A DNA stretch of 63,575 bases, counting the filler, from Acidimicrobiia bacterium (GTDB taxonomy: Bacteria > Actinomycetota > Acidimicrobiia > Spongiisociales > JAHEDJ01), in the NCBI GenBank assembly GCA_029210695.1. It is 5 parts of 5 records of this genome, joined end to end, with 100 filler letters (N's around TTAATTAATTAA, not from the genome) between each part and the next. Parts side by side here need not be neighbours in the genome. Positions count along the whole stretch, not along the records: positions 14,190 to 28,076 come from JARGFH010000079.1; 4 more parts are not named here. One strand, written 5' to 3'. Below the pieces are notes generated by a model. It saw only the letters and a list, made by a program, of their open reading frames with translations. It was not told the DNA's origin and searched no databases. The translations under genes were made by a program, and so were the position numbers. Shown piece by piece: positions 14,090-63,575 of the stretch; positions within the stretch are counted from its first letter, which is position 1, and every line of letters begins with the position of its first letter.

Positions 14090-14189
14090 NNNNNNNNNNN
14101 NNNNNNNNNNNNNNNNNNNNNNNNNNNNNNNNNTTAATTAATTAANNNNNNNNNNNNNNNNNNNNNNNNNNNNNNNNNNNNNNNNNNNN
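14090..14189. other. Artificial contig linker
   Basis: N44-TTAATTAATTAA-N44, which places stops in all six frames. Confidence 0.98.
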
Positions 14190-14270
14190 ATCTGGGAACA
14201 GATCCAGAATGCCGGATCGAGGGCGATGGTGAATGCTCGATATCGCTCTGGGCGGTGGGTGATCTGTGCG
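14190..14270 (-). repeat. Inverted 'head' copy of the module-delimiting repeat
   Basis: Matches 55865-55944 (22/26 and 33/37 identity in the two end blocks). Reverse complement CGCACAGATCAC...GCGATATCGAGCA...CCG^GCA matches the repeat family. Confidence 0.8.
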
Positions 14271-14367
14271 GTCTACGTCGCTCCTCCAAGTGGGGCAGTG
14301 CTGGCAAGTCGCCGGTTTCTTGGTGGCCCGGTTGCGAATCAGTGACGTGCGGCGTCTTTAGTGTGAG

Positions 14368-14883
14368 ATGGGTCGGACAGGTTTGCCATCAGCGGAGGTC
14401 ATGTCGTTGAGAGGTCTTGGCGAGGAGGAGACAGCGGTCGTCACGGAAGTGTATGAGCCGCTGCGCCGGTTTGCAGGTGTTGTCGGTCCGTTGGAGGTGG
14501 ATCCGGATGACCTTGTCCAGGAGGCCTTTCTGCGCGTGCTACGCCATGGCGCGCTGTCAGGTTTGGAGAACCCAGGTGCGTATTTGAGGCGGGTGGTGGT
14601 GAATCTGGCAGCGGATCATCGTCGCCGGTTAGGTCGCCGGCGACGAGCGTTGGCGAGGTTGGCAGCATCGTCTCCGTCTGGTGTTGACCCGGTATTCCCG
14701 TCGGATGTTGCTGATCTGCTGCACCTGGAGCCGAGGGCCAGGGCGGTGCTCTTCATGCATGACGTGGAGGGATATTCGTATCAGGAAATCGCAAACCTGT
14801 TGGGCCTGAGCGACAGCGCCGCCCGGATGGTGGCGTCGCGAGCCCGCCGACGGTTGAGGGCTGCGTTCGCCGAGGAGGTGTGA
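14368..14883 (+). CDS. ECF sigma-70 factor (module 1)
   Basis: Region 2 DDLVQEAFLRV...AYLRRVVVN; region 4 EGYSYQEIANLLG...SRARRRL. Confidence 0.92.
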   Translation: MGRTGLPSAEVMSLRGLGEEETAVVTEVYEPLRRFAGVVGPLEVDPDDLVQEAFLRVLRHGALSGLENPGAYLRRVVVNLAADHRRRLGRRRRALARLAASSPSGVDPVFPSDVADLLHLEPRARAVLFMHDVEGYSYQEIANLLGLSDSAARMVASRARRRLRAAFAEEV

Positions 14884-14884
14884 G

Positions 14885-15829
14885 ATGGAACAGGATCGTT
14901 CGGCATTCGAGTTCTTGGCAACACGCGGCACCCGCGTCGGACCTGACCTGATGGTCGAACGGCTGCAACTAGCGCTGGAGACCGAGCCCGACACCGAGCC
15001 GGGTCAGTTCCGCCGCCGGTCTTTCACGAGGAGCTGGTGGGTTCCCGTGGGAGCAGCGGCGGTGGCCGTGACGGTGGTGTTGGTTAGCTTGCTGATTCCT
15101 CCTGCTGCGCCATCAGCGGCGGCGGTGTTGGAGCAAGCGGAAGCCGCGGCTGTCCAATCGGCTACACCCGTTCCGGGGATGATGCTGCACCAGGTGGTTG
15201 ATTTCGAACGGAACCTGGAACCTACTTGTGAGGGAGGAACGGTGAGGATCGGTGGCGGTGAGGGTGGAGAGCCCCGCTACGGCACCGAGTCCTGGTTCGA
15301 CCCGGCGGGTAACCGGACCCGCGGCCATACCATCTACCCGGATGGGACATCCTCTGATTGGATCGACCTGGGCGGCGTCGAGATCTGGCAGCGAGGCGCC
15401 GAGTCGCCGTTCCGGTCAGTGGGGTGTTCAATGAGGGGGGGACCCACTGAACCACCCGACCCGGCCAATCTGGCACTGCTAGATGCCCTCAACGCTGTAT
15501 CTGATCCGGAAGCGGATCTGGTCGAGCGGGCAGCTGCTTTCGAGACGCTGCGGGGTTTCGAAGCGGTCGAGCTGCTTGCGGGCGAGCACGTAGATGCCAC
15601 CGGCCGTCGCGTGCTGGTACTGGAGGTGTCCCTAGAGGATGTGCTGGGCGAGCGCCAGGTAGCCGACCTCAAGTTCGACCCGGATACCTATCAACTCCTC
15701 GAAACAGCCAACTCCATCGATGGCCCGATGGTAAGGGGCACCGTGCGGATCACTGTTCTCGTCGAGGAATGGATCGAGGTGGATGATGAACTCTTCGATG
15801 TCACCGGATACACCAAGCAGACGGGATAG
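14885..15829 (+). CDS. Putative single-pass anti-sigma/sensor protein
   Basis: Directly after the sigma gene; short cytoplasmic N-terminus, one TM (WVPVGAAAVAVTVVLVSLLI), SAAAVLEQA then an acidic ectodomain. Confidence 0.7.
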   Translation: MEQDRSAFEFLATRGTRVGPDLMVERLQLALETEPDTEPGQFRRRSFTRSWWVPVGAAAVAVTVVLVSLLIPPAAPSAAAVLEQAEAAAVQSATPVPGMMLHQVVDFERNLEPTCEGGTVRIGGGEGGEPRYGTESWFDPAGNRTRGHTIYPDGTSSDWIDLGGVEIWQRGAESPFRSVGCSMRGGPTEPPDPANLALLDALNAVSDPEADLVERAAAFETLRGFEAVELLAGEHVDATGRRVLVLEVSLEDVLGERQVADLKFDPDTYQLLETANSIDGPMVRGTVRITVLVEEWIEVDDELFDVTGYTKQTG

Positions 15830-17099
15830 TCGCCGACCGGCCATAGTTGGCCGCGCCAGCTCGCCAGTGGTCGGACTCATCGCAGCGTCCGCATTGGTAC
15901 TTGCGGCCTGTGGCAACGGCGCCGAGACTGCGACCACTGCCCCGTACCAATCGTCAACTACACAATCGACCGCGGCAACTACATCATCGGTGGGGACTTC
16001 CTCCACAGCCACAATGATGCCCGAGACGCCGACCACAACAACGACTCGTGCTGAGGATCCGTGGCGACGGATCGCTTCTTCTCCACTCGAGGGCCGGTAT
16101 GCGCACGGATCAGCGTGGACCGGCGATCAGCTGGTGATCTGGGGTGGAATCTATCGGTCGGGTGACACTCTGGTCGATCTCACCGACGGAGCCGCCTACA
16201 ACCCGGCCAGCGACACGTGGCGGTCTCTGTCTCCGGCACCTTCGGATCTGGCGGGGCCAGCGGATGCGGTCTGGACCGGCCAAGAGATGATCGTACGGAC
16301 CGATCGTGTCCCCGACGGTCCAGCCGTAATGGCCGCCTATCAGCCAGCTGCGGACACCTGGCGGGTCATCGAAGGCGGGCCCGGCGCCGTACGGGAGGGC
16401 TATACGCTCCTCTGGACAGGAACCGACCTGATCATCTGGGGCGGCAACTCCGGCGACATGCTCGCCGGTCCCACCCTCGGCGCCGCCTACGACCCAACAA
16501 CCGACAGGTGGCGTGCAATTCGGGAATCGCCCATCGCCCCGCGAACCGGACACCAGACGGTCTGGACGGGGGAAGAGATGATCATCTGGGGAGGCCGGGG
16601 AAGCTGCGCCGGGAAAGACTCCACCTGTGTCGAGGACCTCACCGACGGTGCCGCCTACAACCCCGCCACCGACACCTGGCGGACTCTTCCGACGTCGGGC
16701 GACCTCCAAAGCTCAGCAGTGGCGGTATGGGATGGCGACCAGATCCTCTTCTGGAGTCAAGACGAGTGCACCCGGCGGTGCCTGGTCGGAGAGGCGTACG
16801 ATCCGCAGACAGACTTCTGGCTGCAGCTTCCCGACCCTCCAGCGCCAGCCACATCCGATCTGTACCGTGCGTTATGGATAGGTGACCGGGCACTCCTCTG
16901 GAATCAGGACGGCACCGCCCTCACCTACCAACCCAACACGGCAACCTGGCAAACCCTCCCACCGTACCCAAGTGCCGACCGCCGATTCTTCTTAACCCTC
17001 GGATGGACCGGGCAGGCCGTCATCGTATGGGGAGGATGGAACGGTCACGCCTTCACCCCGCCAAGCAACGACGGAGCCGCCCTAGACCCAACACCATGA
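15798..17099 (+). CDS. Kelch-like beta-propeller lipoprotein
   Basis: Lipobox VLAAC, Thr-rich linker, repeats WTGxxxIIWGG...GAAYNPxTDTWR. Start uncertain (15783 or 15798). Confidence 0.85.
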   Translation: MSPDTPSRRDSRRPAIVGRASSPVVGLIAASALVLAACGNGAETATTAPYQSSTTQSTAATTSSVGTSSTATMMPETPTTTTTRAEDPWRRIASSPLEGRYAHGSAWTGDQLVIWGGIYRSGDTLVDLTDGAAYNPASDTWRSLSPAPSDLAGPADAVWTGQEMIVRTDRVPDGPAVMAAYQPAADTWRVIEGGPGAVREGYTLLWTGTDLIIWGGNSGDMLAGPTLGAAYDPTTDRWRAIRESPIAPRTGHQTVWTGEEMIIWGGRGSCAGKDSTCVEDLTDGAAYNPATDTWRTLPTSGDLQSSAVAVWDGDQILFWSQDECTRRCLVGEAYDPQTDFWLQLPDPPAPATSDLYRALWIGDRALLWNQDGTALTYQPNTATWQTLPPYPSADRRFFLTLGWTGQAVIVWGGWNGHAFTPPSNDGAALDPTP

Positions 17100-17147
17100 C
17101 CGAACAGCAACGTCCAGGAAGCGTCGACGAGTCAGCAGATCCCCATG

Positions 17148-17268
17148 CGCTCCGATCACCCGCTATGCGCCATATCAAACACTTCGCGGACCGCACCCGG
17201 ACGGCACCACTGCGCTCGGGTATCTGAGTACCGTCCGACCACGGTGCGTGGAGTGTTGTCGGCGGTGG
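17148..17268 (+). repeat. Module-delimiting repeat, copy 1, with long imperfect hairpin
   Basis: CGCTCCGATCACC-CGCTATGCGCCATATC...GGACG^GCAC; stems 17178-17188/17247-17257 and 17198-17204/17231-17237. Confidence 0.75.
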
Positions 17269-17331
17269 GCCGCTCTTCGCATTGTTTGAGATTCTTGTAC
17301 ACCGTCATGCCGTGTGATGCGTGATAGTGGT

Positions 17332-17886
17332 GTGGAAACGGTACGAAGATCAGCAAGGGTGGTTGTGAGCGAAAACATCCCAGCGATGCCCCGGATCGAG
17401 GGGTTTGATGCTTTCTACGCCAGTGAGTACCCGCGGGCAGTGGCGGTGGCGCACGCTCTATTGGGCGGTGGCCTTGTCGCTGAGGACGTCGTACAGGAAA
17501 CGTTTTTGGCGACCTATCGACAGTGGGATCGGGTCTCGAGGTATGAGAACCCGCGCGCTTGGGTGCGGCGGGTGCTGGTGAACCGGGCGACGTCTTCGCT
17601 GCGGCGGCGGTCGGCCGAGTGGCGGGCCGTCATGCGTCTTTCTGGGCGGGTCGACCCGGGGTGGGTGAGCGCAATCGAGCCGGAGTCCAGTGAGGTGTGG
17701 AAGGCGGTGTCGCAGTTACCGAAGCGGCAGGCGCAGTCGGTTGCTCTCTATTACGTCGATCAGTTGAGCCTTGACGAGATCGGCGAGGTGCTGGGATGTA
17801 GCGCCGGGACGGTCAAGACCCACTTGAGCCGGGCCAGAACCAGGCTGGGTCGGAAGCTGAATGAGTTCAACGAGGTGACGGGATGA
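17332..17886 (+). CDS. ECF sigma-70 factor, SigE-like (module 2)
   Basis: AEDVVQETFLATYRQW, WVRRVLVN, LPKRQ, GTVKTHLSRAR. Start uncertain. Confidence 0.93.
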   Translation: METVRRSARVVVSENIPAMPRIEGFDAFYASEYPRAVAVAHALLGGGLVAEDVVQETFLATYRQWDRVSRYENPRAWVRRVLVNRATSSLRRRSAEWRAVMRLSGRVDPGWVSAIEPESSEVWKAVSQLPKRQAQSVALYYVDQLSLDEIGEVLGCSAGTVKTHLSRARTRLGRKLNEFNEVTG

Positions 17887-19346
17887 ATCGACTTGAGGAC
17901 CGGCTCCGACGTACGTCAAGGGAGCTACGTGAGGCGACAGCTCATCTCACCGCCCCCCCGCTAGAGGGTGCCCGAACCCGTGCGCGACGCCGGTTGGTGT
18001 TGGGGTTCGTTGGGGGGGCGGCGGTAGTTCTCTTTCTGATTGGCGGTGTTGCGCTGCTTCAACCCAACACCCCCGACCGGCCGATTGCCAACACCACGGT
18101 GGCACCCTCGACCACGGTGGCACCGTCGACCACGGTGGCGGAGGTGGACTGGACTGGGGGTTGGGTGGTGCTGTCGAGCGACCCCCGGGTGGTGCAAGCT
18201 CCCGACGACCCGGCACCTCTGTCGCCTCTCCCATCGGGCACCGAGATCCCCCTCCTGCCTATCACGTCTCTGAGGAGCCAGGACGTCGAAGCGATAGGCG
18301 TCTACGAGGGCGACCAACCGATCGTCGCGGTGGGTGTACTTGGTACCGGCGATCGGTTGTTCGTGGTCCCACCGGGGTGGACGGGGGCTCCCACCGATGT
18401 TGGCACCTGTTATCTGATCGTCGGCGACTCCGCCGCAGGCTCCGGTGTTCTCTGTGACGAGAACTGGGATGAGCCTTTGCTGGACCCAGATCCACCCGGG
18501 TCGCTCCGTTTCATCGGACCGGTACCGTCGGGGACGAGCACGTTTGAGGCCACCGATTGTCCCCTCACGACGAACTGTTCACATGAGATCGGCGAGTACT
18601 GGCAGCGCACCCGGGGCGGGTTCGTATTCATGGAAGCCCCGTTCAACTCCCCGGTCATCCAATGGACCGCACGAGCAGCCGACGGGACCGTCCTCCAACA
18701 AGCCGAGCGTGGCCCTTTCCAGTCGCTCGCCCAATCACCCAGCCAGACCGAAGCCGACGCCCAACGTGACGGGGTTGTCCCCGAGTTGGCCAACCTCGCT
18801 TTCACCCTCAGGGTCGACCCTTTGGTCGAATGGAACACCGAGGACGGTACATGGATGATCGCCCGACCGAGCGACGACCTCATCAACTCCACCATGGCTG
18901 ACGGATGCGGATTCGGTAACCTCGAGGGGACCTACCCGACCGAGGTGATCTGCACCTCCGAATACGGTGAGATCCTCCTCGTGGACGAAACTGGGAAGAT
19001 CGCCCGCGCGTATCCGATGCCGAGTGCAGTTCCAAGCTGGATCTATGTGACCTCGAGCACCGTGTATGCCGGACGGATCGGAGACGGGGGCCTACCCGAT
19101 TCGACCCTGATCCGTATCAGCCGCGACACACTGGAAGCCACCGTAGTCCTGATACCGGCGTACTTTGATGGCGGACAGGACTGGCCACCAGGCTGGCACA
19201 TCGCCACCCCAGAACAAAGCGCCGGATATGAAGGTCTGGTGGGGTTTGCCCCCGACATGACAGGCACCACGGTCACCTCCTGGAAAGGTGACGTTGTGGT
19301 CGACATCGAAGGCATCGACCAACTGATCACCCAACTCACCGAATAA
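17883..19346 (+). CDS. Putative single-pass anti-sigma/sensor protein
   Basis: ATGA overlap with the sigma stop; MNRLEDRLRRT start, one TM, (TTVAPS) linker, large ectodomain. Confidence 0.72.
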   Translation: MNRLEDRLRRTSRELREATAHLTAPPLEGARTRARRRLVLGFVGGAAVVLFLIGGVALLQPNTPDRPIANTTVAPSTTVAPSTTVAEVDWTGGWVVLSSDPRVVQAPDDPAPLSPLPSGTEIPLLPITSLRSQDVEAIGVYEGDQPIVAVGVLGTGDRLFVVPPGWTGAPTDVGTCYLIVGDSAAGSGVLCDENWDEPLLDPDPPGSLRFIGPVPSGTSTFEATDCPLTTNCSHEIGEYWQRTRGGFVFMEAPFNSPVIQWTARAADGTVLQQAERGPFQSLAQSPSQTEADAQRDGVVPELANLAFTLRVDPLVEWNTEDGTWMIARPSDDLINSTMADGCGFGNLEGTYPTEVICTSEYGEILLVDETGKIARAYPMPSAVPSWIYVTSSTVYAGRIGDGGLPDSTLIRISRDTLEATVVLIPAYFDGGQDWPPGWHIATPEQSAGYEGLVGFAPDMTGTTVTSWKGDVVVDIEGIDQLITQLTE

Positions 19347-19496
19347 GGACAGCCGCGACACCGGACGAGAACCCAAAGTCCGTCACCGGCAAACGACCAA
19401 GAGAACCCGAAAAAGGTGTCAAAGGAAACCACTCCCGACGCGTCTTACTAACAGTGGAAGCCACCGTCACCAGCGGGGAGCCGCGATGACACAGCT

Positions 19497-19606
19497 CGCA
19501 CCCGATCACCAAATATGCGCCATAACGCACCTCACAACCACCCGTCCCCGAACGGCACTTCGAGGAGCGCGCTCCGCTTGAACGGTCGCTACTCAGTGTG
19601 GTGGTC
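19497..19606 (+). repeat. Module-delimiting repeat, copy 2
   Basis: CGCACCCGATCACCAAATATGCGCCATAACG...CACCCGTCCCCGAACG^GCAC; GATCACCA (19504-11) can pair with TGGTGGTC (19599-606). Confidence 0.8.
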
Positions 19607-20710: not shown

Positions 20711-20750
20711 GGCACGGCCGCTTGATCGCATCCAAGCAGTATGCCAGCCA

Positions 20751-20846
20751 CGCACAGATCACTCTGATATCGCGCCATAACGAGCACATCGCCCACCCGT
20801 CCTGGATCGGCACGTCGGCGGGCGGCGGCGGAACCACCCAGAGTGG
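20751..20846 (+). repeat. Module-delimiting repeat, copy 3
   Basis: CGCACAGATCACTCTGATATCGCGCCATAACGAGCAC...CACCCGTCCTGGATCG^GCAC; TCACTCTG (20759-66) pairs with CAGAGTGG (20839-46). Confidence 0.82.
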
Positions 20847-20936: not shown

Positions 20937-21059
20937 GTGGTCGACGATGTGCGTGGTGATGCGCGGGATTGGCCGCTGGTCGTTGGCGGTGATCACGCGG
21001 CGTTCGAGCGCGTCTTCGACCGTCATGCCGATCTGATCTATCGGTTTGCGCGGCGCCGC
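20937..21059 (+). pseudogene. 5' fragment of a transposon-split ECF sigma factor (module 4)
   Basis: GGGAGG RBS, GTG 20937: MVDDVRGDARDWPLVVGGDHAAFERVFDRHADLIYRFARRR; joins in frame to 24938. Confidence 0.88.
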
Positions 21060-21112
21060 CTCCCGTGTGATTGAGTGGTGATTATGTCGCACCCCTCCGG
21101 TAGGCTGTGGGC

Positions 21113-24705: not shown

Positions 24706-24937
24706 GAGCGGCTCTCCCCTGAGCTGTCAGTCGTAAGTGGCATTGCTTCGTCATTCTTAGATCTTCCCATATGGCGGTACGAGTGCGTGACTTTCTGCAG
24801 CAGTGTCGGCCCGTGCCTCACCTGGCGGCAGTCCCTTGGGGATGCCGAATGGAACTGCACCAACCCCCAACGGTACCCGAAGTAGGCCGTTCTGGGGCGG
24901 ACATAATCACCACTCAATCACACGGGGGGGGCGCCGC

Positions 24938-25450
24938 ACCGGAGATGCCGATCTCGCTGAGGAGGTTGTTTCGCAGGTGTTTCTGGAAGCCTGGCGGCAA
25001 CGCAAGCGGGTGCGACTTCTTGACGGTTCGCTGCGGTCGTGGCTGTTGGGGGTGGCCTCGAACCTGGTGAGACGTCACTGGCGGAGCCGAGATCGAGGGA
25101 GACGTGCCATCGGCCGCCTCCCTCATCCGACTCCGGTCCAGGATCACGCTGACGAGGTTGCTGATCGAACCGATGGCCAGCGACGACTGGAAGTCCTTAG
25201 AGCACAGCTCGAACGGATGCCCCGCAAGCAGGTCGAGGTGTTGCTGCTGTGGGCATGGGAGGAGCTGAGCTACAACGAGATTGCTCAGACTCTCGAGGTC
25301 CCGGTCGGCACGGTGCGGTCTCGACTCTCACGGGCACGGAAACATCTCAATGCCGGCGAGGGAACCGTCACCGAGGATCGGGCATTCCCTCATCGCAAGC
25401 CCGACGGTGACGACTCACCGGCCACGAATTCGGAAAGGAGCACAGGATGA
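24938..25450 (+). pseudogene. 3' fragment of the transposon-split ECF sigma factor
   Basis: TGDADLAEEVVSQVFLEAWR...WLLGVASN...LSYNEIAQTLEVPVGTVRSRLSRAR. Confidence 0.9.
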
Positions 25451-26199
25451 ACGACTCAGACCTTTGTCGTCTGATGCTTCCCGATGACGGACTACCGCCG
25501 GAACGTCACGACCTCATCAAGGAGCGTGTCATGACCGCGGTCAGAACCGAACAACCCTTCCCCGGCAGCCAGTCCACCTCGAGTTCCCGGGTTCGTGTGC
25601 GACTGGTCCCAACCCTGGCGTCGGTGATCGCTGTCCTGCTGGTGGCGGGCACCGCTGGGGCGATGGGGCTGTTTCCTTGGCAGGCGAAGGAAACCCTCGA
25701 CTACATGGATTGCCGCACCAGCGGCAGCGTCGAGACACTTGTCGCCACCGCCGATGCAAGCGACGGGAACACCACCCAACTCTGGACCACCAGTCCAGGT
25801 CCAGACGCTGCGCCGAGCGGATTCGCCATGGTCGAGATCGATTCGCAAGGTGAATACGTCGGGGGTGTGAACGCGTGCAACACCGCCACGTGGGAGTTCG
25901 CCCCCATGGGCGAGATCTGGGTCGGAGCCCCAGCAGAAGCCTCCGCACAAGAAACGGTCCTCACCGTGCTGGGCCACGTCCCCACCGCGGCTGCCACCGT
26001 CGAGGTGACCTTCGACGACGGAAGCGTCGTGCAGACCAACGTGCAGACCGACGGCTACTTCCTCGAGCTCGTCCACGGTCCCGGCGTTGACGTCTCTCCC
26101 GGCAATCCCGAGCCGCACTTCCCGGAAGCCATCATCGTCACAGCCCTGGACACAGACGGGAACGTCATCGCCCGCCAAGACCTCCGGGATCTCGGATAG
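25447..26199 (+). CDS. Putative single-pass anti-sigma/sensor protein
   Basis: ATGA overlap, GAAAGGAG RBS, one TM (LASVIAVLLVAGTAGAMG), ectodomain. Confidence 0.72.
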   Translation: MNDSDLCRLMLPDDGLPPERHDLIKERVMTAVRTEQPFPGSQSTSSSRVRVRLVPTLASVIAVLLVAGTAGAMGLFPWQAKETLDYMDCRTSGSVETLVATADASDGNTTQLWTTSPGPDAAPSGFAMVEIDSQGEYVGGVNACNTATWEFAPMGEIWVGAPAEASAQETVLTVLGHVPTAAATVEVTFDDGSVVQTNVQTDGYFLELVHGPGVDVSPGNPEPHFPEAIIVTALDTDGNVIARQDLRDLG

Positions 26200-26282: not shown

Positions 26283-26359
26283 CGACCGAGATCACCAAAT
26301 ACGTTGCACGAACGAGCACTCCGCCGAGAGCGCTGGATCGGCGTTTCTTGCCCGGCGGA
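26283..26359 (+). repeat. Module-delimiting repeat, copy 4 (diverged)
   Basis: GAGATCACCAAATAC...AACGAGCAC...TGGATCG^GC at the conserved 51-nt spacing; stem TCCGCCG/CGGCGGA. Confidence 0.65.
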
Positions 26360-27352: not shown

Positions 27353-27430
27353 GTGCCATAGGACGCACTGCGGTAGATCTCGATCAGGGTCGTCGCTCCG
27401 ATGTTTGCTGCTGGATACCCCCATGCAGTC

Positions 27431-27482
27431 CAGATCGCCAGATATGCGCCATAAAGAACGGGCCCCTGATCCGAGCCGAACG
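27431..27482 (+). repeat. Module-delimiting repeat, copy 5, cut by an IS110 insertion
   Basis: CAGATCGCCAGATATGCGCCATAAAG...GAACG followed by the IS110 end in place of GCAC. Confidence 0.78.
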
Positions 27483-27573
27483 AGGCCTGTTTGGTTGTCA
27501 AGGGGTGTTTTGGGCGCGGTGGAGTGCCTTGCCGGATCGGCAAGCTCGGTGGTGTGGGCGTAGGCTGGGGGTT

Positions 27574-27664
27574 GGCCCGGGGTGGCTTTGTGGAAGAGCC
27601 GGCGCTTCAGGATGCAACGCCGGACACGCACGCGACAGAGACGTTCCTGGGTGCCCCCCGGGCC
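27574..27664 (-). ncRNA. Predicted IS110 bridge/seek RNA
   Basis: 91 nt starting right after the transposase stop, closed by GGCCCGGGG/CCCCGGGCC, with internal stem CCGGCGTT/AGCGCCGG. Confidence 0.6.
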
Positions 27665-28076
27665 CTAACGCTTTTGGTCGGCGACGAGGTGGCGGTAGAC
27701 GACGTCAGAGAGGCGCCGTTTCAGTGACCGGATGGCTTCCTTCTTCGTTTTGCCTTCAGCGAGTTTACGTTCGTAGAAGATGCGTCCCTCAGTTCCCGGG
27801 TAGCGGAGTTGGGTGATCGCGATCAGATGCAGCGCATGGTTCAACATGCGGTTGCCTCGCGGGTTGAGCCGATGCCGCTTCTTCGACCCGGAGGAGGCGT
27901 CGATGGGGGCGGTGCCGTTGTAGGTGGCATAGTGGTGCCGGGTGGGGAACCTGGTGATGTCGCCGCTGTAGCCGATCACCAGGCCGGCTACGACCGGGCC
28001 CACGCCGTAGATGTCGGTAAGGGTGGTGCCCGACGCTGCCACTGCGGTGGCCAGGTTTGCCTTTGACGCTTTGAGT
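27665..28076 (-). CDS. IS110 transposase, C-terminal part (cut by contig end)
   Basis: IYGVGPVVAG...RFPT...GTAPIDASSG...RLNPRGNRMLNHALH...AIRSLKRRL. Confidence 0.92.
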
Positions 28077-28176
28077 NNNNNNNNNNNNNNNNNNNNNNNN
28101 NNNNNNNNNNNNNNNNNNNNTTAATTAATTAANNNNNNNNNNNNNNNNNNNNNNNNNNNNNNNNNNNNNNNNNNNN
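28077..28176. other. Artificial contig linker
   Basis: N44-TTAATTAATTAA-N44. Confidence 0.98.
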
Positions 28177-29559: not shown

Positions 29560-29799
29560 GTGAGTGACTGGCAGACGGATGCCCTGTGCAGGGGCAACCA
29601 TTCGCACCTGTTTTTCCCGCCCAGTACGTTCGAGCGCAAGGATGAACGCGAGCGGCGAGAGGCTCGGGCCAAGGCGATCTGCCAGGTTTGCCCCGTAGTT
29701 GGTGCGTGCCTGGAATATGCCGTTCGTATTCGCGAACCGTACGGCATTTGGGGGGGACTTACCGAGCCCGACCGACGGTCGGTCGCTCAGCCGGCCTGA
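29560..29799 (+). CDS. whiB: WhiB-family Fe-S transcription regulator (WhiB3/WhiD-like)
   Basis: WQTDALC...LFFP...AKAICQVCPVVGACLEYA...EPYGIWGGLTE; GGAG RBS. Confidence 0.95.
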   Translation: MSDWQTDALCRGNHSHLFFPPSTFERKDERERREARAKAICQVCPVVGACLEYAVRIREPYGIWGGLTEPDRRSVAQPA

Positions 29800-31589
29800 A
29801 CCGTCCGAACATCACCGTCCCGCTCCGTGACGCCGTTGGCGTCCATCCATTCGAGGAGCGGGACGGCGTATTTCCTGGACAGTCCGAAGAGATCACGAAA
29901 CTCGGCGACCGTGAACGGACCCTGCATCGCTCGAATGCGCTTTGCCAGGGCGTCGAGTTGGTCGGGCAGATAAACCAGTTCGGGGCCGACCCGGATGATC
30001 CTCCGGTCACGCAGAAGGGCATGCAGGAGATCCGGATCTATTGGTAGTTCCTTGATCCGGGGGACGGTGAGCCCCGCCGACTGCAGGCTGCTGCGGAGGT
30101 TTTCCCATTCGCCTTCCCGGCCGGCATCGAGGCCTCCTTCGAAATCCACCCCGGCGACCGTGGCCCCGTCGTCCCGCAGATCTCCGCTTCGGGCGATCAG
30201 CACTTCGAGAGAGTCGAGGTCGATCCCCAGCCCACTTGCCAGGCTGGCCTTCTGGATGCCCGGCCGCAGTGGATTCCCACCATGGAAAGAGCGAACCAGG
30301 CCTACCGCGCGGGAAGTCAGCTGCTGGGCCAGGGTGTGGGCCATTGCGCGCTGCTTCACCACGACGGCATCTGCCGGTTTCCCACCTCCGGAGTGAGCCG
30401 ACAGTCGGGCGAGATCCTCGATCTTGCGCGAATCCAGGAGTGCGCCGGCCAGGGCATCGGGCCCCCGTCCCAAGGCGTCGCGCAGCTTTGGGAGCGATGC
30501 AAGAACGTCCGGGCGACGCGGGCTCGGGGCCGGATCGAGGACCCGGCCCCCTCCGACGACGGCCCGGCGCCCAGTCTCGCGGAGGATGAAACGATCCCCG
30601 GCGACGACCGGAATCCGTTCAGGCAGGCGGAGGAGGGCAGCTCCCGGTCCCGTCAGCGCAGCATCTTCAATGAGGCGTAGAGTGACCGGCCAGGAACCGG
30701 ACCCTAGGTGCAGGTGAAACGCACCACGATTGGTCAGGGGATCCTCGACGTAGCGGGCCGGCCGGACGTCGACGAGCAGCGTGTCGCTGGGCGCCCATTG
30801 GCCCGGAATCCCGAGCATGTTGCCCCGCTGAACCTCCCTGCGTTCGAGTCCTGCAAGATTGATGGCGCAGCGAGTTGCCGGCGGAACCGAGTCGAGTTCC
30901 GTTTCGTGCGACTGGAGTCCGCGTACCCGCACCTCGTGGCCTCCCGGCCAGAGCTCGAGACGGTCGCCTAGACGGACGGTTCCGTCGGTGAGGGTGCCGG
31001 TCACGACGGTCCCCGCCCCCGAGATGGTGAACGCCCGATCGATCCAGAGTCGCGCCCGGCCGTTGGGCTCGAGACTCCGGCCCGCTTCATCCACGATCCG
31101 AACGAGATGGTTGATTAGCTCGTCGTACCCCTCCCGGGTCGGCGCGGCCACGGGAACGAGTGGAGCCCCGGCAAATACGGTCCCCTCCAGTTGCTCTTCT
31201 ATCTCGAGCATTGCGAGTTCGAGGAGATCGTCGTCGACCCGGTCCCGTTTCGTCACTGCTACCAGCCCGTGCCGCACGCCGAGCAGGTCGAGGACGGCCA
31301 GATGCTCCTCGGACTGAGGCATCCAGCCCTCGTCGGCTGCGACCACGAGCAGCGCTACGTCGATCGCTTCAGTGCCGGCCAGCATGTTCTTGATGAATCG
31401 TTCGTGGCCGGGGACGTCGACGAATGACACTTCGGTCCCATCGGGAAGCGTCGTCCAGGCGAACCCTAGGTCGATGGTTAGACCGCGACGTTTCTCCTCA
31501 TCCCAACGGTCGGGATCCCGGCCGGTCAATCCTTCGACCAGTGTGGACTTTCCATGGTCGACATGCCCGGCGGTGCCGATTACCGGCAT
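29787..31589 (-). CDS. selB: Selenocysteine-specific elongation factor SelB
   Basis: IGTAGHVDHGKS, EEKRRGLTIDLGF, DVPGHERFIKNM, C-terminal wHTH FRDLFGLSRKYAVPLLE. Confidence 0.96.
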   Translation of the reverse strand: MPVIGTAGHVDHGKSTLVEGLTGRDPDRWDEEKRRGLTIDLGFAWTTLPDGTEVSFVDVPGHERFIKNMLAGTEAIDVALLVVAADEGWMPQSEEHLAVLDLLGVRHGLVAVTKRDRVDDDLLELAMLEIEEQLEGTVFAGAPLVPVAAPTREGYDELINHLVRIVDEAGRSLEPNGRARLWIDRAFTISGAGTVVTGTLTDGTVRLGDRLELWPGGHEVRVRGLQSHETELDSVPPATRCAINLAGLERREVQRGNMLGIPGQWAPSDTLLVDVRPARYVEDPLTNRGAFHLHLGSGSWPVTLRLIEDAALTGPGAALLRLPERIPVVAGDRFILRETGRRAVVGGGRVLDPAPSPRRPDVLASLPKLRDALGRGPDALAGALLDSRKIEDLARLSAHSGGGKPADAVVVKQRAMAHTLAQQLTSRAVGLVRSFHGGNPLRPGIQKASLASGLGIDLDSLEVLIARSGDLRDDGATVAGVDFEGGLDAGREGEWENLRSSLQSAGLTVPRIKELPIDPDLLHALLRDRRIIRVGPELVYLPDQLDALAKRIRAMQGPFTVAEFRDLFGLSRKYAVPLLEWMDANGVTERDGDVRTVQAG

Positions 31590-32911
31590 GCAGACTCCAG
31601 CGCCGCCAACAGGGCGTCGTCGTCGGCCTCCGGGACAGCGCGAAGATCGATTATCAACTCGCCGGCATCACGCCTCGCTACCACCGGCGGTTCGGCGGCG
31701 AGGAGTCGATCCCAAACCAGGTCGACGGTGACCCCGTAGATGGCGAGAACCGGCGTCGGTAGCTCTGCTCCCGGCACCGAGCCGGCACCCGGCACAGAGT
31801 TGCTCTGACGAATCTCTCCACCGGCGACTCCCTGGAGACGTGTGAGCCGCGGCCGGAGTTGCTCGTCGGATTTCGTTGCCATCGACCAGAAAGGGATCTC
31901 GGCGCCGCGTCCATCGGCGTAGATCTCCAGAGTGGCGGCCAGGGCGGCGAGATTAGAGCCGTCGATGCGAAGCGCTCGGGCGATGGGATGTGTCGACATC
32001 GTCTCGATGGCCCCGGCAGTTCCGACGACGATGCCGGCCTGGGGACCGCCGAGGAGCTTGTCCCCCGAGAAGGTGATCACATCGGCTCCGGTCGCTAGTG
32101 CCTGCCGCACGCCCGGCTCACCTCCGAGCCAGGTGGGTGGTGGGCCATCCAGCCATGGAACGTTGTCGTCGAGCAGCCCCGAGCCGATGTCGAACGCGAC
32201 CGGGACCTCGTGGGCCCGTCCGATCTCGACCAGATCGGCGAGCGGAGTGTCCTCAGCGAACCCCATCACGCGGTAGTTCGAGGGGTGGACCTTCAAGAGC
32301 AGGGTGGTGTCGGTAGTGATGGCACGTTCGTAGTCGGATCTGCGGGTACGGTTGGTCGTTCCGACCTCGACCATGCGGGCGTGACTGGCCGCCATCAGCT
32401 CGGGCAACCGGTAGGAGCCACCGATCTCGATCAACTCGCCTCGCGAAACGGGAACCCGGCCGTCGCCTCCAATGGCTGCCAGCGTCAGGAGCAACGCACC
32501 CGCATTGTTGCCGACCACCATGGCCGCCTCGGCACCGGTCAGATTGCGGAGGAGATCTTTCACGTAGGCGCCCCGCCCACCTCTGCTACCGGTGGTGAGG
32601 TCGAATTCGAGGTTGCCGTATCCGGTGGCGGCCAGGTGGGCCGCATCGGCAGCCGCGGGCGCAAGGGGGGCCCTACCGAGATTCGTGTGCAACAGAACGC
32701 CCGTCGCATTGAGCAGGCGGTGCGGCTTCGAGCGGCTTGCTCTCGAGAGCCTGTCCGCCGCCAGGGCAGCGGCGTCGGCTTGTTCGCCTGCAGTGATCAG
32801 TTGGCGGGCCTCATCGATCGAGCGGCGCACGATCTCGGTAACCAGGCCCACCGGAAGCGGAGAGTTGATCTGGCGAACCAGAGCGTCGACGGAGGGGAGG
32901 TGCCGCAGCAT
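31580..32911 (-). CDS. selA: L-seryl-tRNA(Sec) selenium transferase SelA
   Basis: LPSVD, NATGVLLHTNLGRA, SRGELIEIGGS, EVGTTNRT, FSGDKLLGGPQAG. Confidence 0.96.
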   Translation of the reverse strand: MLRHLPSVDALVRQINSPLPVGLVTEIVRRSIDEARQLITAGEQADAAALAADRLSRASRSKPHRLLNATGVLLHTNLGRAPLAPAAADAAHLAATGYGNLEFDLTTGSRGGRGAYVKDLLRNLTGAEAAMVVGNNAGALLLTLAAIGGDGRVPVSRGELIEIGGSYRLPELMAASHARMVEVGTTNRTRRSDYERAITTDTTLLLKVHPSNYRVMGFAEDTPLADLVEIGRAHEVPVAFDIGSGLLDDNVPWLDGPPPTWLGGEPGVRQALATGADVITFSGDKLLGGPQAGIVVGTAGAIETMSTHPIARALRIDGSNLAALAATLEIYADGRGAEIPFWSMATKSDEQLRPRLTRLQGVAGGEIRQSNSVPGAGSVPGAELPTPVLAIYGVTVDLVWDRLLAAEPPVVARRDAGELIIDLRAVPEADDDALLAALESACR

Positions 32912-41764: not shown

Positions 41765-41864
41765 NNNNNNNNNNNNNNNNNNNNNNNNNNNNNNNNNNNN
41801 NNNNNNNNTTAATTAATTAANNNNNNNNNNNNNNNNNNNNNNNNNNNNNNNNNNNNNNNNNNNN
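41765..41864. other. Artificial contig linker
   Basis: N44-TTAATTAATTAA-N44. Confidence 0.98.
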
Positions 41865-55312: not shown

Positions 55313-55412
55313 NNNNNNNNNNNNNNNNNNNNNNNNNNNNNNNNNNNNNNNNNNNNTTAATTAATTAANNNNNNNNNNNNNNNNNNNNNNNNNNNNNNNN
55401 NNNNNNNNNNNN
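55313..55412. other. Artificial contig linker
   Basis: N44-TTAATTAATTAA-N44. Confidence 0.98.
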
Positions 55413-55489
55413 ACAGAGTGACCAAAACCCGGCCCGGGGGGTCAATTTTCAACCGGTGCCAGGGGGTCAATTTTCAGGCGGTGTTGACA
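55413..55489 (+). mobile_element. IS21-family terminus
   Basis: GGGGGTCAATTTTCA twice (55437, 55462) and terminal GTTGACA. Confidence 0.8.
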
Positions 55490-55836
55490 CCACCGACCGG
55501 GAATGGGCCTACGTGGCGATGAGCCGCGGACGGCAAACCAACACCCTCTACCTCACCAACGTCGGACCGGCTGATGAACAGTGCGCCCACCTCACCCACC
55601 AAGGTCGCTCCGATGCCCTCGATCGCCTCACCGCTTCGCTCAACCGCGCCTCGGCCCAGATCGCCGCCATCGACCATGCCGGACCGGCACCCACCGATGA
55701 CATTGACCCGTTGGGTCCGCCCCCACCCAGCACAGATGTCGCTGCTCGGGTCGCCTGGCAGATCGCCAAACGCCGGATCCAAACGGACGAAACCGAACGG
55801 CAGGCACCCGGCTTCGACCTTGCTGTTGGCCGCTGA
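55490..55836 (+). pseudogene. C-terminal fragment of a MobF/TrwC-like relaxase-helicase, interrupted by IS21
   Basis: Helicase motif VI REWAYVAMSRGRQTNTLY and a tail ending ...GFDLAVGR*, typical of relaxase C-termini. Confidence 0.72.
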
Positions 55837-55864: not shown

Positions 55865-55944
55865 ATCTGGGATCAGATCGATATTGCCGGCTATGAGCGA
55901 AAGGGAGTGCTCGCTATCGCTCGGGGCGGCGCGTGATCTGTGCG
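55865..55944 (-). repeat. Inverted 'head' copy of the module-delimiting repeat, 28 nt after the relaxase stop
   Basis: Homologous to 14190-14270; ends GTGATCTGTGCG. Confidence 0.8.
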
Positions 55945-56059
55945 CCGGTGCCAATCGTGGACCGATGGCAGCGGGTCGGAGGATGGATTCCAGGATCCTC
56001 GCAGCGGGGTGCGGTACTCGACACCAGTGCGGCCTCGGCCCGTTCAAGAGGAAGGAGAG

Positions 56060-63315: not shown

Positions 63316-63440
63316 ACCATCCAAACCACATCTCTGAGAGAGATAAGTGCTGGTGGGTTTCACCGATGGTGTCGCCACGGCACGACGACGGGCAGACGAG
63401 ATCGGAAACGGCCCCCTCGATGCAATGCTTCACTGACAAG

Positions 63441-63500
63441 CGCACGAGATCGCCCTGATATCGCGGAATAACGCCCTTTTCGCCTACCCGTCCGCTATCG
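63441..63500 (+). repeat. Module-delimiting repeat, copy 6, cut by an IS110-like end
   Basis: CGCACGAGATCGCCCTGATATCGCGGAATAACG...TCGCCTACCCGTCCGCTATCG, closest to the 20751 copy. Confidence 0.8.
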
Positions 63501-63575
63501 ATGCCTGTTTGGTTGTCAAGGGGGTTTTTGGGCGCGTTGGTGCCGCTCGGCCGTGACCGAGGTGATCGTGGGGTG
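63501..63575 (-). mobile_element. Right end of a second, related IS110 element
   Basis: 63503-63540 is 35/38 identical to 27485-27522, then diverges. Confidence 0.75.

Follow-up and report, generated by a model that had tools for sequence, protein, structure and literature searches.

The two positions in the window at which an interspersed repeat is cut short are probably both occupied by one lineage of IS110-family insertions of about 1.43 kb, which encode a DEDD/RuvC-type recombinase and would pick their site by means of a bridge RNA in the left end. The window, namely the whole stretch of 63,575 nt that was analyzed, was composed of five draft contigs (A to E) joined artificially by N44-TTAATTAATTAA-N44 linkers at 14090-14189, 28077-28176, 41765-41864 and 55313-55412, and the neighbourhood across these joins was not real. 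The occurrence of two insertions at the same base of the repeat within the window was far beyond chance.

Repeat copies and insertion junctions in the window

The repeat unit was about 60-75 nt long. Among its conserved blocks were, in order, GCAC-like bases, GATCACC at a distance of 1-3 nt and a TATGCGCCATAACG-like block that was nearly palindromic. Some 18 bases between this block and CG/GCAC (the slash denotes the insertion point) were variable; [G/T]T came after CG/GCAC, and a subfamily carried about 12 more bases after [G/T]T. The column identity among the copies was about 65%. Eight copies were present in the window, six of them in the 13.9-kb contig B and two in contig E, and the profile search gave none in the other three contigs. 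The copies and the parts of the inserted elements are summarized in Table 1. The copies were intergenic, 1.2-6.7 kb apart and mostly in the same orientation (five of the six in contig B). The genes between them were accessory, namely ECF sigma operons, a Kelch protein, a restriction-modification module, a GH25 lysozyme and a serine hydrolase, together with many genes of no family.

Table 1. Repeat copies and element parts in window coordinates; distances are those from the GATC block to the CG/GCAC point.
Feature	Position	Strand	Remarks
Diverged copy, longer subfamily	14199..14283	-	start of contig B; E 0.17; 52 nt
Unoccupied copy	17145..17207	+	CG/GCAC at 17202-17207; E 1.9e-14, member of the model
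Unoccupied copy	19496..19560	+	CG/GCAC at 19553-19558
Unoccupied copy	20750..20815	+	CG/GCAC at 20808-20813; 14 nt to the right match the L005 left flank
Weaker unoccupied copy	26290..26342	+	CG/GCGT; E 0.02; 51 nt
Occupied repeat copy 1	27424..27482	+	cut after CG (27481-27482); ends in GAACG
Right-end non-coding region, element copy 1	27483..27664	-	182 nt past the stop codon; from alignment with nine other copies
Recombinase C-terminus, 136 codons	27665..28076	-	PF02371 E 1.6e-17; truncated by the contig end
Diverged copy, same longer subfamily	55874..55958	-	83% identical to 14223-14270; E 0.49; 51 nt
Occupied repeat copy 2	63440..63500	+	cut after CG (63499-63500); ends in TATCG
Right end, element copy 2	63501..63575	-	different hairpin variant; cut by the window end, 75 nt visible

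The first-pass annotation of this DNA stated that the repeat stops at 27482 and 63500 where intact copies continue with GCAC, and this was confirmed to the base. After the equivalent CG, GCAC was read in three unoccupied copies of the same contig as the first junction (17204-17207, 19555-19558 and 20810-20813). The profile of the repeat was built from seven unoccupied copies only, three from the window and four from the flanks of the loci L002, L004 and L008 described below. The first occupied copy matched this profile with an E value of 3.5e-6 in an alignment that stopped exactly at 27482, and its GATC block was 50 nt from the junction; the second copy had an E value of 1.7e-3 and a distance of 53 nt. 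An element right end followed each junction (27482/27483 and 63500/63501) in the same orientation. The two right ends had 35 of 38 bases in common when counted from GCCTG and 34 of 38 when counted from the first base past CG. The agreement fell to 10 of 33 bases past position 42, and the earlier description of two ends that are shared over 35/38 nt and then diverge was therefore accurate.

The C-terminus of a recombinase was encoded on the minus strand past the first junction, and hence it is the right end of the element that abuts the repeat. The translation of this fragment contained the G..P....SG motif of the C-terminal Tnp domain (PF02371), as defined in the available part of PMC11187229. 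The fragment (27665-28075) scored 78.3 bits against NF033542 (positions 210-341 of 343), below the cut-off because the gene was truncated; no PF01548 domain was visible in the window, the gene being cut at 28076. The right-end non-coding region of the first copy comprised the terminal dinucleotide (AG on the plus strand), an imperfect terminal inverted repeat, a TTGACA box, a variable hairpin and a conserved block beside the stop codon. The first copy was 86% identical to the element of locus L005 over 597 nt and 78-84% identical to the other elements. The second copy was assigned to IS110 by its likeness to the first copy and to the loci below, because its own gene was out of sight; its first 38-43 nt were 98-100% identical to the L001 and L006 ends, and its identity with the first copy collapsed after about 42 nt. 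The earlier claim of two different IS110 elements was overstated. The two copies differ in a hypervariable hairpin, and as far as the 75 nt of the second can tell, they are better regarded as variants of one uncharacterised IS110-family lineage from Acidimicrobiia. Neither a left end nor its flank was within the window because copy 1 was cut at 28076 and copy 2 by the window end, and a search of the window for left-end sequence at up to three mismatches gave 0 matches.

The nature of the repeat was examined by folding and by family searches. Single folds of six copies had z-scores of -0.71 to +1.02, with no fold, and RNAalifold on ten unoccupied copies gave 0 predicted pairs on either strand. 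The Rfam search of the whole window at the gathering threshold gave 0 hits, and in contig B at E <= 5 there were two hits, both at chance level and unconnected with the repeat. The repeat is neither REP-like nor attC-like, since it had neither a predicted structure nor an Rfam family, and the comparison of the target with attC and REP sites in the first-pass annotation was abandoned. A REP or BIME was rejected because no stem-loop-forming palindromic unit was predicted on either strand, and an integron attC because neither strand showed any pairing. The scan of 66 window ORFs revealed no integrase gene. A promoter or terminator was also rejected, as a consensus scan gave nothing recurrent at the copies. 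The ECF-type -35/-10, a short upstream ORF, a Shine-Dalgarno-like GGTGATC and a dif-like arm were inconsistent between the copies by eye. It had been suggested that the insertions independently support the repeat as an abundant functional element. The multi-copy and conserved character of the repeat was upheld, but targeting by an IS shows these properties only and not that the repeat is functional.

Several other features of the window were recorded. Its overall G+C content was 62%, and a family scan of the 66 ORFs identified genes for WhiB, a BldD-like regulator and ECF sigma factors; selB and selA, for selenocysteine incorporation, adjoined the WhiB gene (29787-32911). The named sequences closest to LepA were from Acidimicrobiia MAGs, with identities of up to 88%, and the host accordingly appears to be an uncultured acidimicrobiian. 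Contig B held three ECF sigma factor genes within 12 kb (14368-19346, 24803-26199), each followed by a gene without a family, and its repeat copies lay after ECF sigma operons or 100-130 nt before them. In the same contig, 30-nt inverted repeats with 97% complementarity (21059-21088 and 24900-24929) bracketed three genes, namely a 383-aa ORF without a family, a GmrSD_N protein and an EcoRI-type adenine methylase. The segment 21059-24929 looks like a transposon-like module with restriction-modification genes, and its right inverted repeat fell within the longest reading of the ECF sigma ORF 24803-25450. The start of contig C (28217-29303) held the C-terminal 152 aa of a Mutator/IS256-family transposase (PF00872), which was another IS at a contig break, and then an HTH_23 protein on the opposite strand. 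Contig E (55413-55835) began with GGGGGTCAATTTTCA twice, possibly an IS end. An ORF was open from the first bases of this contig, and its C-terminus had YVAMSRGRQTNTLYL, which may be a RecD/TraA-type helicase motif; a diverged repeat copy came afterwards. The two copies of the longer subfamily, 83% alike over 48 nt, had an extra small palindrome, ATCTGGGA[A/T]CAGAT, and each was the sole copy of opposite orientation in its contig, to the left of plus-oriented copies.

The element in other genomes

The shared 20-nt end was scanned against species-representative genomes. Eight further copies (L001 to L008) were found in seven MAGs, which gave ten copies together with the two in the window. The MAG records were labelled Actinomycetota, Actinomycetes and Acidimicrobiia, with one contig each labelled Acidobacteria and Gemmatimonadales. 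All ten flanks ended in CG, which was followed by A[G/T]G and the shared end. The flank comparison proposed with the first-pass annotation was carried out on these ten copies, and five of the flanks matched the profile of unoccupied copies at E < 0.01, namely the two window flanks (27431 and 63447, with the values given above), L003 (1e-7), L007 (1.3e-3) and L008 (8.9e-3). The E values were 5 for L005 and 8.2 for L002, and L001, L004 and L006 gave no match. The distance from the GATCAC-like block to the IS junction was 50-53 nt in seven of the ten occupied sites. The distance from this block to the CG/GCAC point was likewise 50-53 nt in nine of ten unoccupied copies and 46 nt in the tenth. The value for L002 was re-anchored by eye on GAGCAC, where the automatic anchor gave 72; the anchor in L006 (42 nt) was doubtful, and no GATCAC-like anchor was seen in L001 or L004. 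The four further repeat copies in L002, L004 and L008 were all oriented like the occupied one.

Across independent genomes, the lineage thus inserts at one and the same base of this repeat, though not exclusively. Three of the ten insertions (L001, L004 and L006) were in flanks not recognisable as repeat copies, indicating that the element needs only a short site and not the repeat itself. Hence, the IS110 lineage specialised for this site that was envisaged earlier held with respect to the fixed position and orientation, but not with respect to these three flanks. Both ends were present in six loci (L001, L003, L005, L006, L007 and L008). The prediction that GCAC would resume past the left end was borne out in four of these: the left flank ended in GTGC (GCAC in repeat orientation) in L001, L003, L007 and L005, with an offset of two bases in L005, and the left flanks of L006 and L008 did not end in GTGC.

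The complete element was 1430-1441 bp long in the six loci; the non-coding stretch upstream of the gene (left) measured 229-231 nt and the one downstream (right) 179-185 nt. The recombinase gene had 339-341 codons and was broken in L003, which also held an N run. PF01548 (N-terminal, DEDD/RuvC-like; E 1.9e-23 to 5.2e-20) and PF02371 were found in five of five intact relatives, and the two relatives scanned against NF033542, 'IS110 family RNA-guided transposase', scored 166.5 (L001) and 170.8 bits (L008) with a cut-off of 140. The terminal inverted repeat was imperfect and about 22 nt long, with about 15 of 22 bases matched in a by-eye reading; three bases lay beyond it on the right and only 0-2 on the left. 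The best 120 metagenome clusters listed for the L005 protein were 75-96% identical to it, and the organism names on 6 of these 120 were Acidimicrobiia (4), Actinomycetota (1) and 'bacterium' (1). The protein family of the recombinase appears from these matches to be large in metagenomes. A blastn search of 27482-28076 in a plasmid collection returned only 10 records with 60-80% identity, none covering 80% of the query, and yielded neither a close relative nor an annotated name. A literature search for IS110 elements in Acidimicrobiia returned no paper, and a named ISfinder relative may exist. In L006, a rifampin ADP-ribosyltransferase gene (Arr-ms, E 9e-51) occupied 2179-2604, about 450 nt past the right end of the element. 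In L003, an N run was just outside the left end (111-299), and the recombinase frame was broken (531-1467).

Predicted left-end RNA and target recognition

The six left ends (about 230 nt) folded alike into a 5' stem-loop and two long stems, each of which had an internal loop and a capping hairpin. In the bridge RNA of IS621, as described in the available parts of PMC11208160 and PMC11208158, 8-9 nt of the bottom strand are recognised by the 5' sides of the loops and 4-7 nt of the top strand by the 3' sides, and each of the four guides contains the core. The second loop of the present fold matched the element's own ends in six of six copies: its 5' side carried the last 8 bases of the right end and then xU (GU), and its 3' side the complement of the first 6 left-end bases. 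The first loop read A[U/C/G]GUGCCU on the 5' side and UUUCGA[A/G], then CGAG, on the 3' side. The 5' side of the first loop equalled the left flank plus CT over 8, 8, 10, 6, 3 and 2 contiguous bases in the six copies. The local-alignment sum of the 5' sides with their own flanks was 41 compared with a mean of 36, and a fraction of 0.028 of 720 permutations reached 41. Moreover, L006 had a different first-loop 5' side and a correspondingly different flank. The 3' side gave an own sum of 29 vs 28.3 with the right flank (permutation fraction 0.5), with no covariation, and only the complement of CT plus CG was matched throughout. L005 alone had a G in this 3' side, and the matching C was present in the L005 flank.

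The fold was drawn from six sequences that were about 80-90% alike, with compensatory changes in 2 of 70 pairs. A single left-end copy had a z-score of -1.71 (12 of 200 shuffles folded as well), part of the proposed 3'-side guide was drawn as a stem in the predicted fold, and Rfam on the six loci at E <= 1 gave no family match in the left end. The left end is most likely a bridge RNA of the IS110-group type, as predicted from the sequence, and the choice of target is most likely guided by this RNA as in the IS110 group. A bridge RNA in the left end would therefore explain the choice of site. The RNA would be made and would guide recombination as in IS621. One of its loops matches the two ends of the element (the donor), and the other matches a short site with NGTGC on one side and CG on the other, which occurs at a fixed place inside the interspersed repeat. 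Because this short site is repeated many times, successive insertions would share one base and one orientation, and the element could also land in unrelated DNA that carries the short site by chance.

Transposition may proceed through a circle, in which the joined ends would put the TTGACA box of the right end upstream of the RNA. This box was 13 nt from the right tip, which is the usual site of the -35 element for a promoter formed in a circle. By our own count, its spacing in the joined circle would be 15 nt with one shared dinucleotide and 17 nt with both. A convincing -10 element for a circle-junction promoter was sought in the left end and was not found.

The core dinucleotide did not conform to this scheme in every respect. 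The left boundary of the element was CT in six of six copies, and the right boundary was CT (3) or AT (7) in ten. The right-hand dinucleotide went with the element variant: L004 and L007, which are the same variant in one MAG, both had AT, and the first window copy and its closest relative L005 both had CT. In the available part of PMC11208158, the second core base of IS621 is given as a nearly invariant T and the first as free, and the boundaries of the present element agreed with this. All ten unoccupied copies had GTGC directly followed by CG, and the CT specified by the guides was absent. Hence, the repeat as seen was not a perfect canonical target. The right-hand part of the copies 20756 and L004a was the sequence of the left flank of the L005 insertion (14 nt were identical to 20756), so these copies were the best available stand-ins for an empty site. 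Furthermore, the left junctions of L005 and L008 each contained an additional dinucleotide, the same as that at the right of the respective element.

Three accounts of this pattern are possible. The real targets may be uncommon variants of the repeat that have two additional bases and all happen to be occupied. The site may lack a core, and each end of the element may bring its own dinucleotide. The crossover may also pass through a single shared C, for which no extra bases would be needed and the geometry would not be that of IS621. All four guides agree with the CT-core register, which calls for two additional bases in the target, whereas the single-C register agrees with the unoccupied repeats and departs from the geometry of IS621. 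In recent preprints, single-strand and 'half-match' routes have been proposed for IS110 elements, and no account of the pattern described here was found in the literature consulted.

Alternative readings and relation to known systems

The repeat may instead be a module that hitch-hikes on the element or that the recombinase of the element mobilises, like ssr9 with ISPpu9, in which case solo copies would be modules left behind or moved alone. The available part of PMC12288879 offers ISPpu9 as a precedent for modular circles. The repeat was always on the right-end side and in one orientation, and GCAC-like bases often occurred both 1-3 nt before GATCAC and after CG, resembling a short direct repeat on both sides of a unit of about 56 nt. 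Moreover, 23 nt were common to copy 17151, L003 and L004a, and near-identical stretches occurred across MAGs. However, the ends of the repeat were unlike the donor sequences read by the second loop, and the repeats were far more diverged than the adjoining element ends, as the column identity and the 35/38 agreement given above show. Three of the ten elements had no recognisable repeat alongside. In four of the six complete copies, the right-hand part of the repeat continued past the element, so the element interrupts the repeat and does not abut it. The module is thus considered unlikely.

It is more doubtful still that the target is recognised as a folded attC- or REP-like structure by an IS1111-type element with an RNA in the right end. 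According to the available part of PMC11187229, IS1111-group elements are known to target attC and REP sites, and the recombinase length of 339-341 aa was inside the IS1111 range given there. An imperfect terminal inverted repeat of about 22 nt and a conserved right-end non-coding region of about 180 nt are also compatible with such an element. On the other hand, the target had no fold in the single predictions (z -0.71 to +1.02) or in the alignment-based predictions on both strands (0 pairs), and the donor- and target-matching sequences sat in the left end. According to the accessible part of PMC11187229, the subterminal inverted repeats of the IS1111 group are near-perfect and 11-13 bp long, and 7 (or 6) bp extend beyond them on the left and 3 bp on the right; the inverted repeat here was imperfect (about 15/22), and its left extension was 0-2.

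Every copy had a hairpin about 45-70 nt from the right tip (27520-27545 in the window; L001-L008), the stem of which differed with compensating changes. This hairpin did not covary with the flank. The own sum was 60 vs 59.4 (p 0.47) in nine copies, L004 being left out because its variant is that of L007. No counterpart of the seekRNA that the IS1111 group encodes downstream of the recombinase gene was thus apparent in the variable part of the right end, which was unrelated to the flank; the conserved part hardly varied. The hairpin was ruled out as a second target guide on the same values. The link to the IS1111 group in the first-pass annotation accordingly found no support, neither in this test nor in the location of the target-matching RNA. 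The only right-end hits in the Rfam search of the six loci were sub-threshold antisense matches to RF02341 (ncrMT1302, a Mycobacterium sRNA) in the conserved region of L008 (5095-5185, 31.6 bits) and L001 (3204-3296, 27.5 bits), with a cut-off of 45.

An assembly artefact, in which repeated IS sequence was wrongly joined to contig ends, is hardly credible: the window copies were at a contig end or window end, where collapsed repeats usually break assemblies, but the same junction occurred in eight contigs from seven other assemblies, and the artefact is excluded because the element was internal with both flanks in six contigs elsewhere.

Insertion of IS110-family elements into one intergenic repeat has long been known, and a bridge or seek RNA explains it. 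The two insertions in the window conform to this site-specific behaviour. Tobes and Pareja are said to have described, in 2006, IS110-family elements in copies of one intergenic repeat. Elements within copies of one recurrent repeat are also described for ISPa11 and the attC-targeting IS1111 group in the available part of PMC11187229. As far as IS621 is covered by the accessible parts of PMC11208160 and PMC11208158, the present lineage resembled it and the IS110 group in the DEDD plus Tnp-domain recombinase. It also resembled IS621 in the predicted left-end RNA with a 5' stem-loop and two internal loops for the target and the joined ends, in being bounded by xT dinucleotides, and in that it inserts, always in one orientation, into an intergenic repeat of many copies. 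In contrast to IS621, the target here was non-palindromic, unstructured and not a REP, the terminal inverted repeat was longer and imperfect, a conserved right non-coding region of about 180 nt carried a hypervariable hairpin, and the unoccupied targets had no core dinucleotide; the present lineage is known from sequence alone.

The ISPpu9 and ISPpu10 elements of Pseudomonas putida provide a second comparison, on the basis of the available parts of PMC12288879 and bioRxiv 10.64898/2026.03.19.712850. All of their copies are likewise in one conserved intergenic sequence, and ISPpu9, too, has additional non-coding sequence past the recombinase gene. Their targets are REPs or carry a stem-loop, and this stem-loop adds specificity in the case of ISPpu10, whereas no stem-loop was predicted in the repeat here. 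The IS1111-attC group (ISKpn4, ISPst6 and ISPa25) and IS4321/IS5075, as treated in the accessible part of PMC11187229, similarly comprise diverged elements at one position of a recurrent site, with subterminal inverted repeats and recombinases of similar length. Their seekRNA is downstream of the gene and their target is a folded attC or a transposon end, whereas the guide-like loops here were upstream and the target was neither. The lineage is a new one from Acidimicrobiia in which a predicted left-end RNA of the IS110 type is combined with rather long, imperfect repeats at the termini, a conserved non-coding region at the other end as well, and an unstructured target.

Arrays of the repeat in the same orientation between unrelated accessory genes were observed in four separate contigs. 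The repeat could be a site at which mobile gene cassettes of Acidimicrobiia are bounded or recombined, and so play the part of attC without its structure, although we consider this improbable. If it were true, the IS110 lineage would exploit the repeat as IS1111-attC elements exploit integron cassettes, and the missing core dinucleotide would reflect a junction geometry unlike that of IS621. The discrepancy of the CT core and the unstructured, orientation-biased repeat between accessory genes in several MAGs are the points that deserve a further look. For annotation, the insertions explain two contig breaks in the assembly. The lineage offers a natural example of putative bridge-RNA targeting of a host repeat in a poorly studied, uncultured actinobacterial class, and its several diverged element variants, together with their flanks, may be useful as raw material for guide-target rules outside Proteobacteria.
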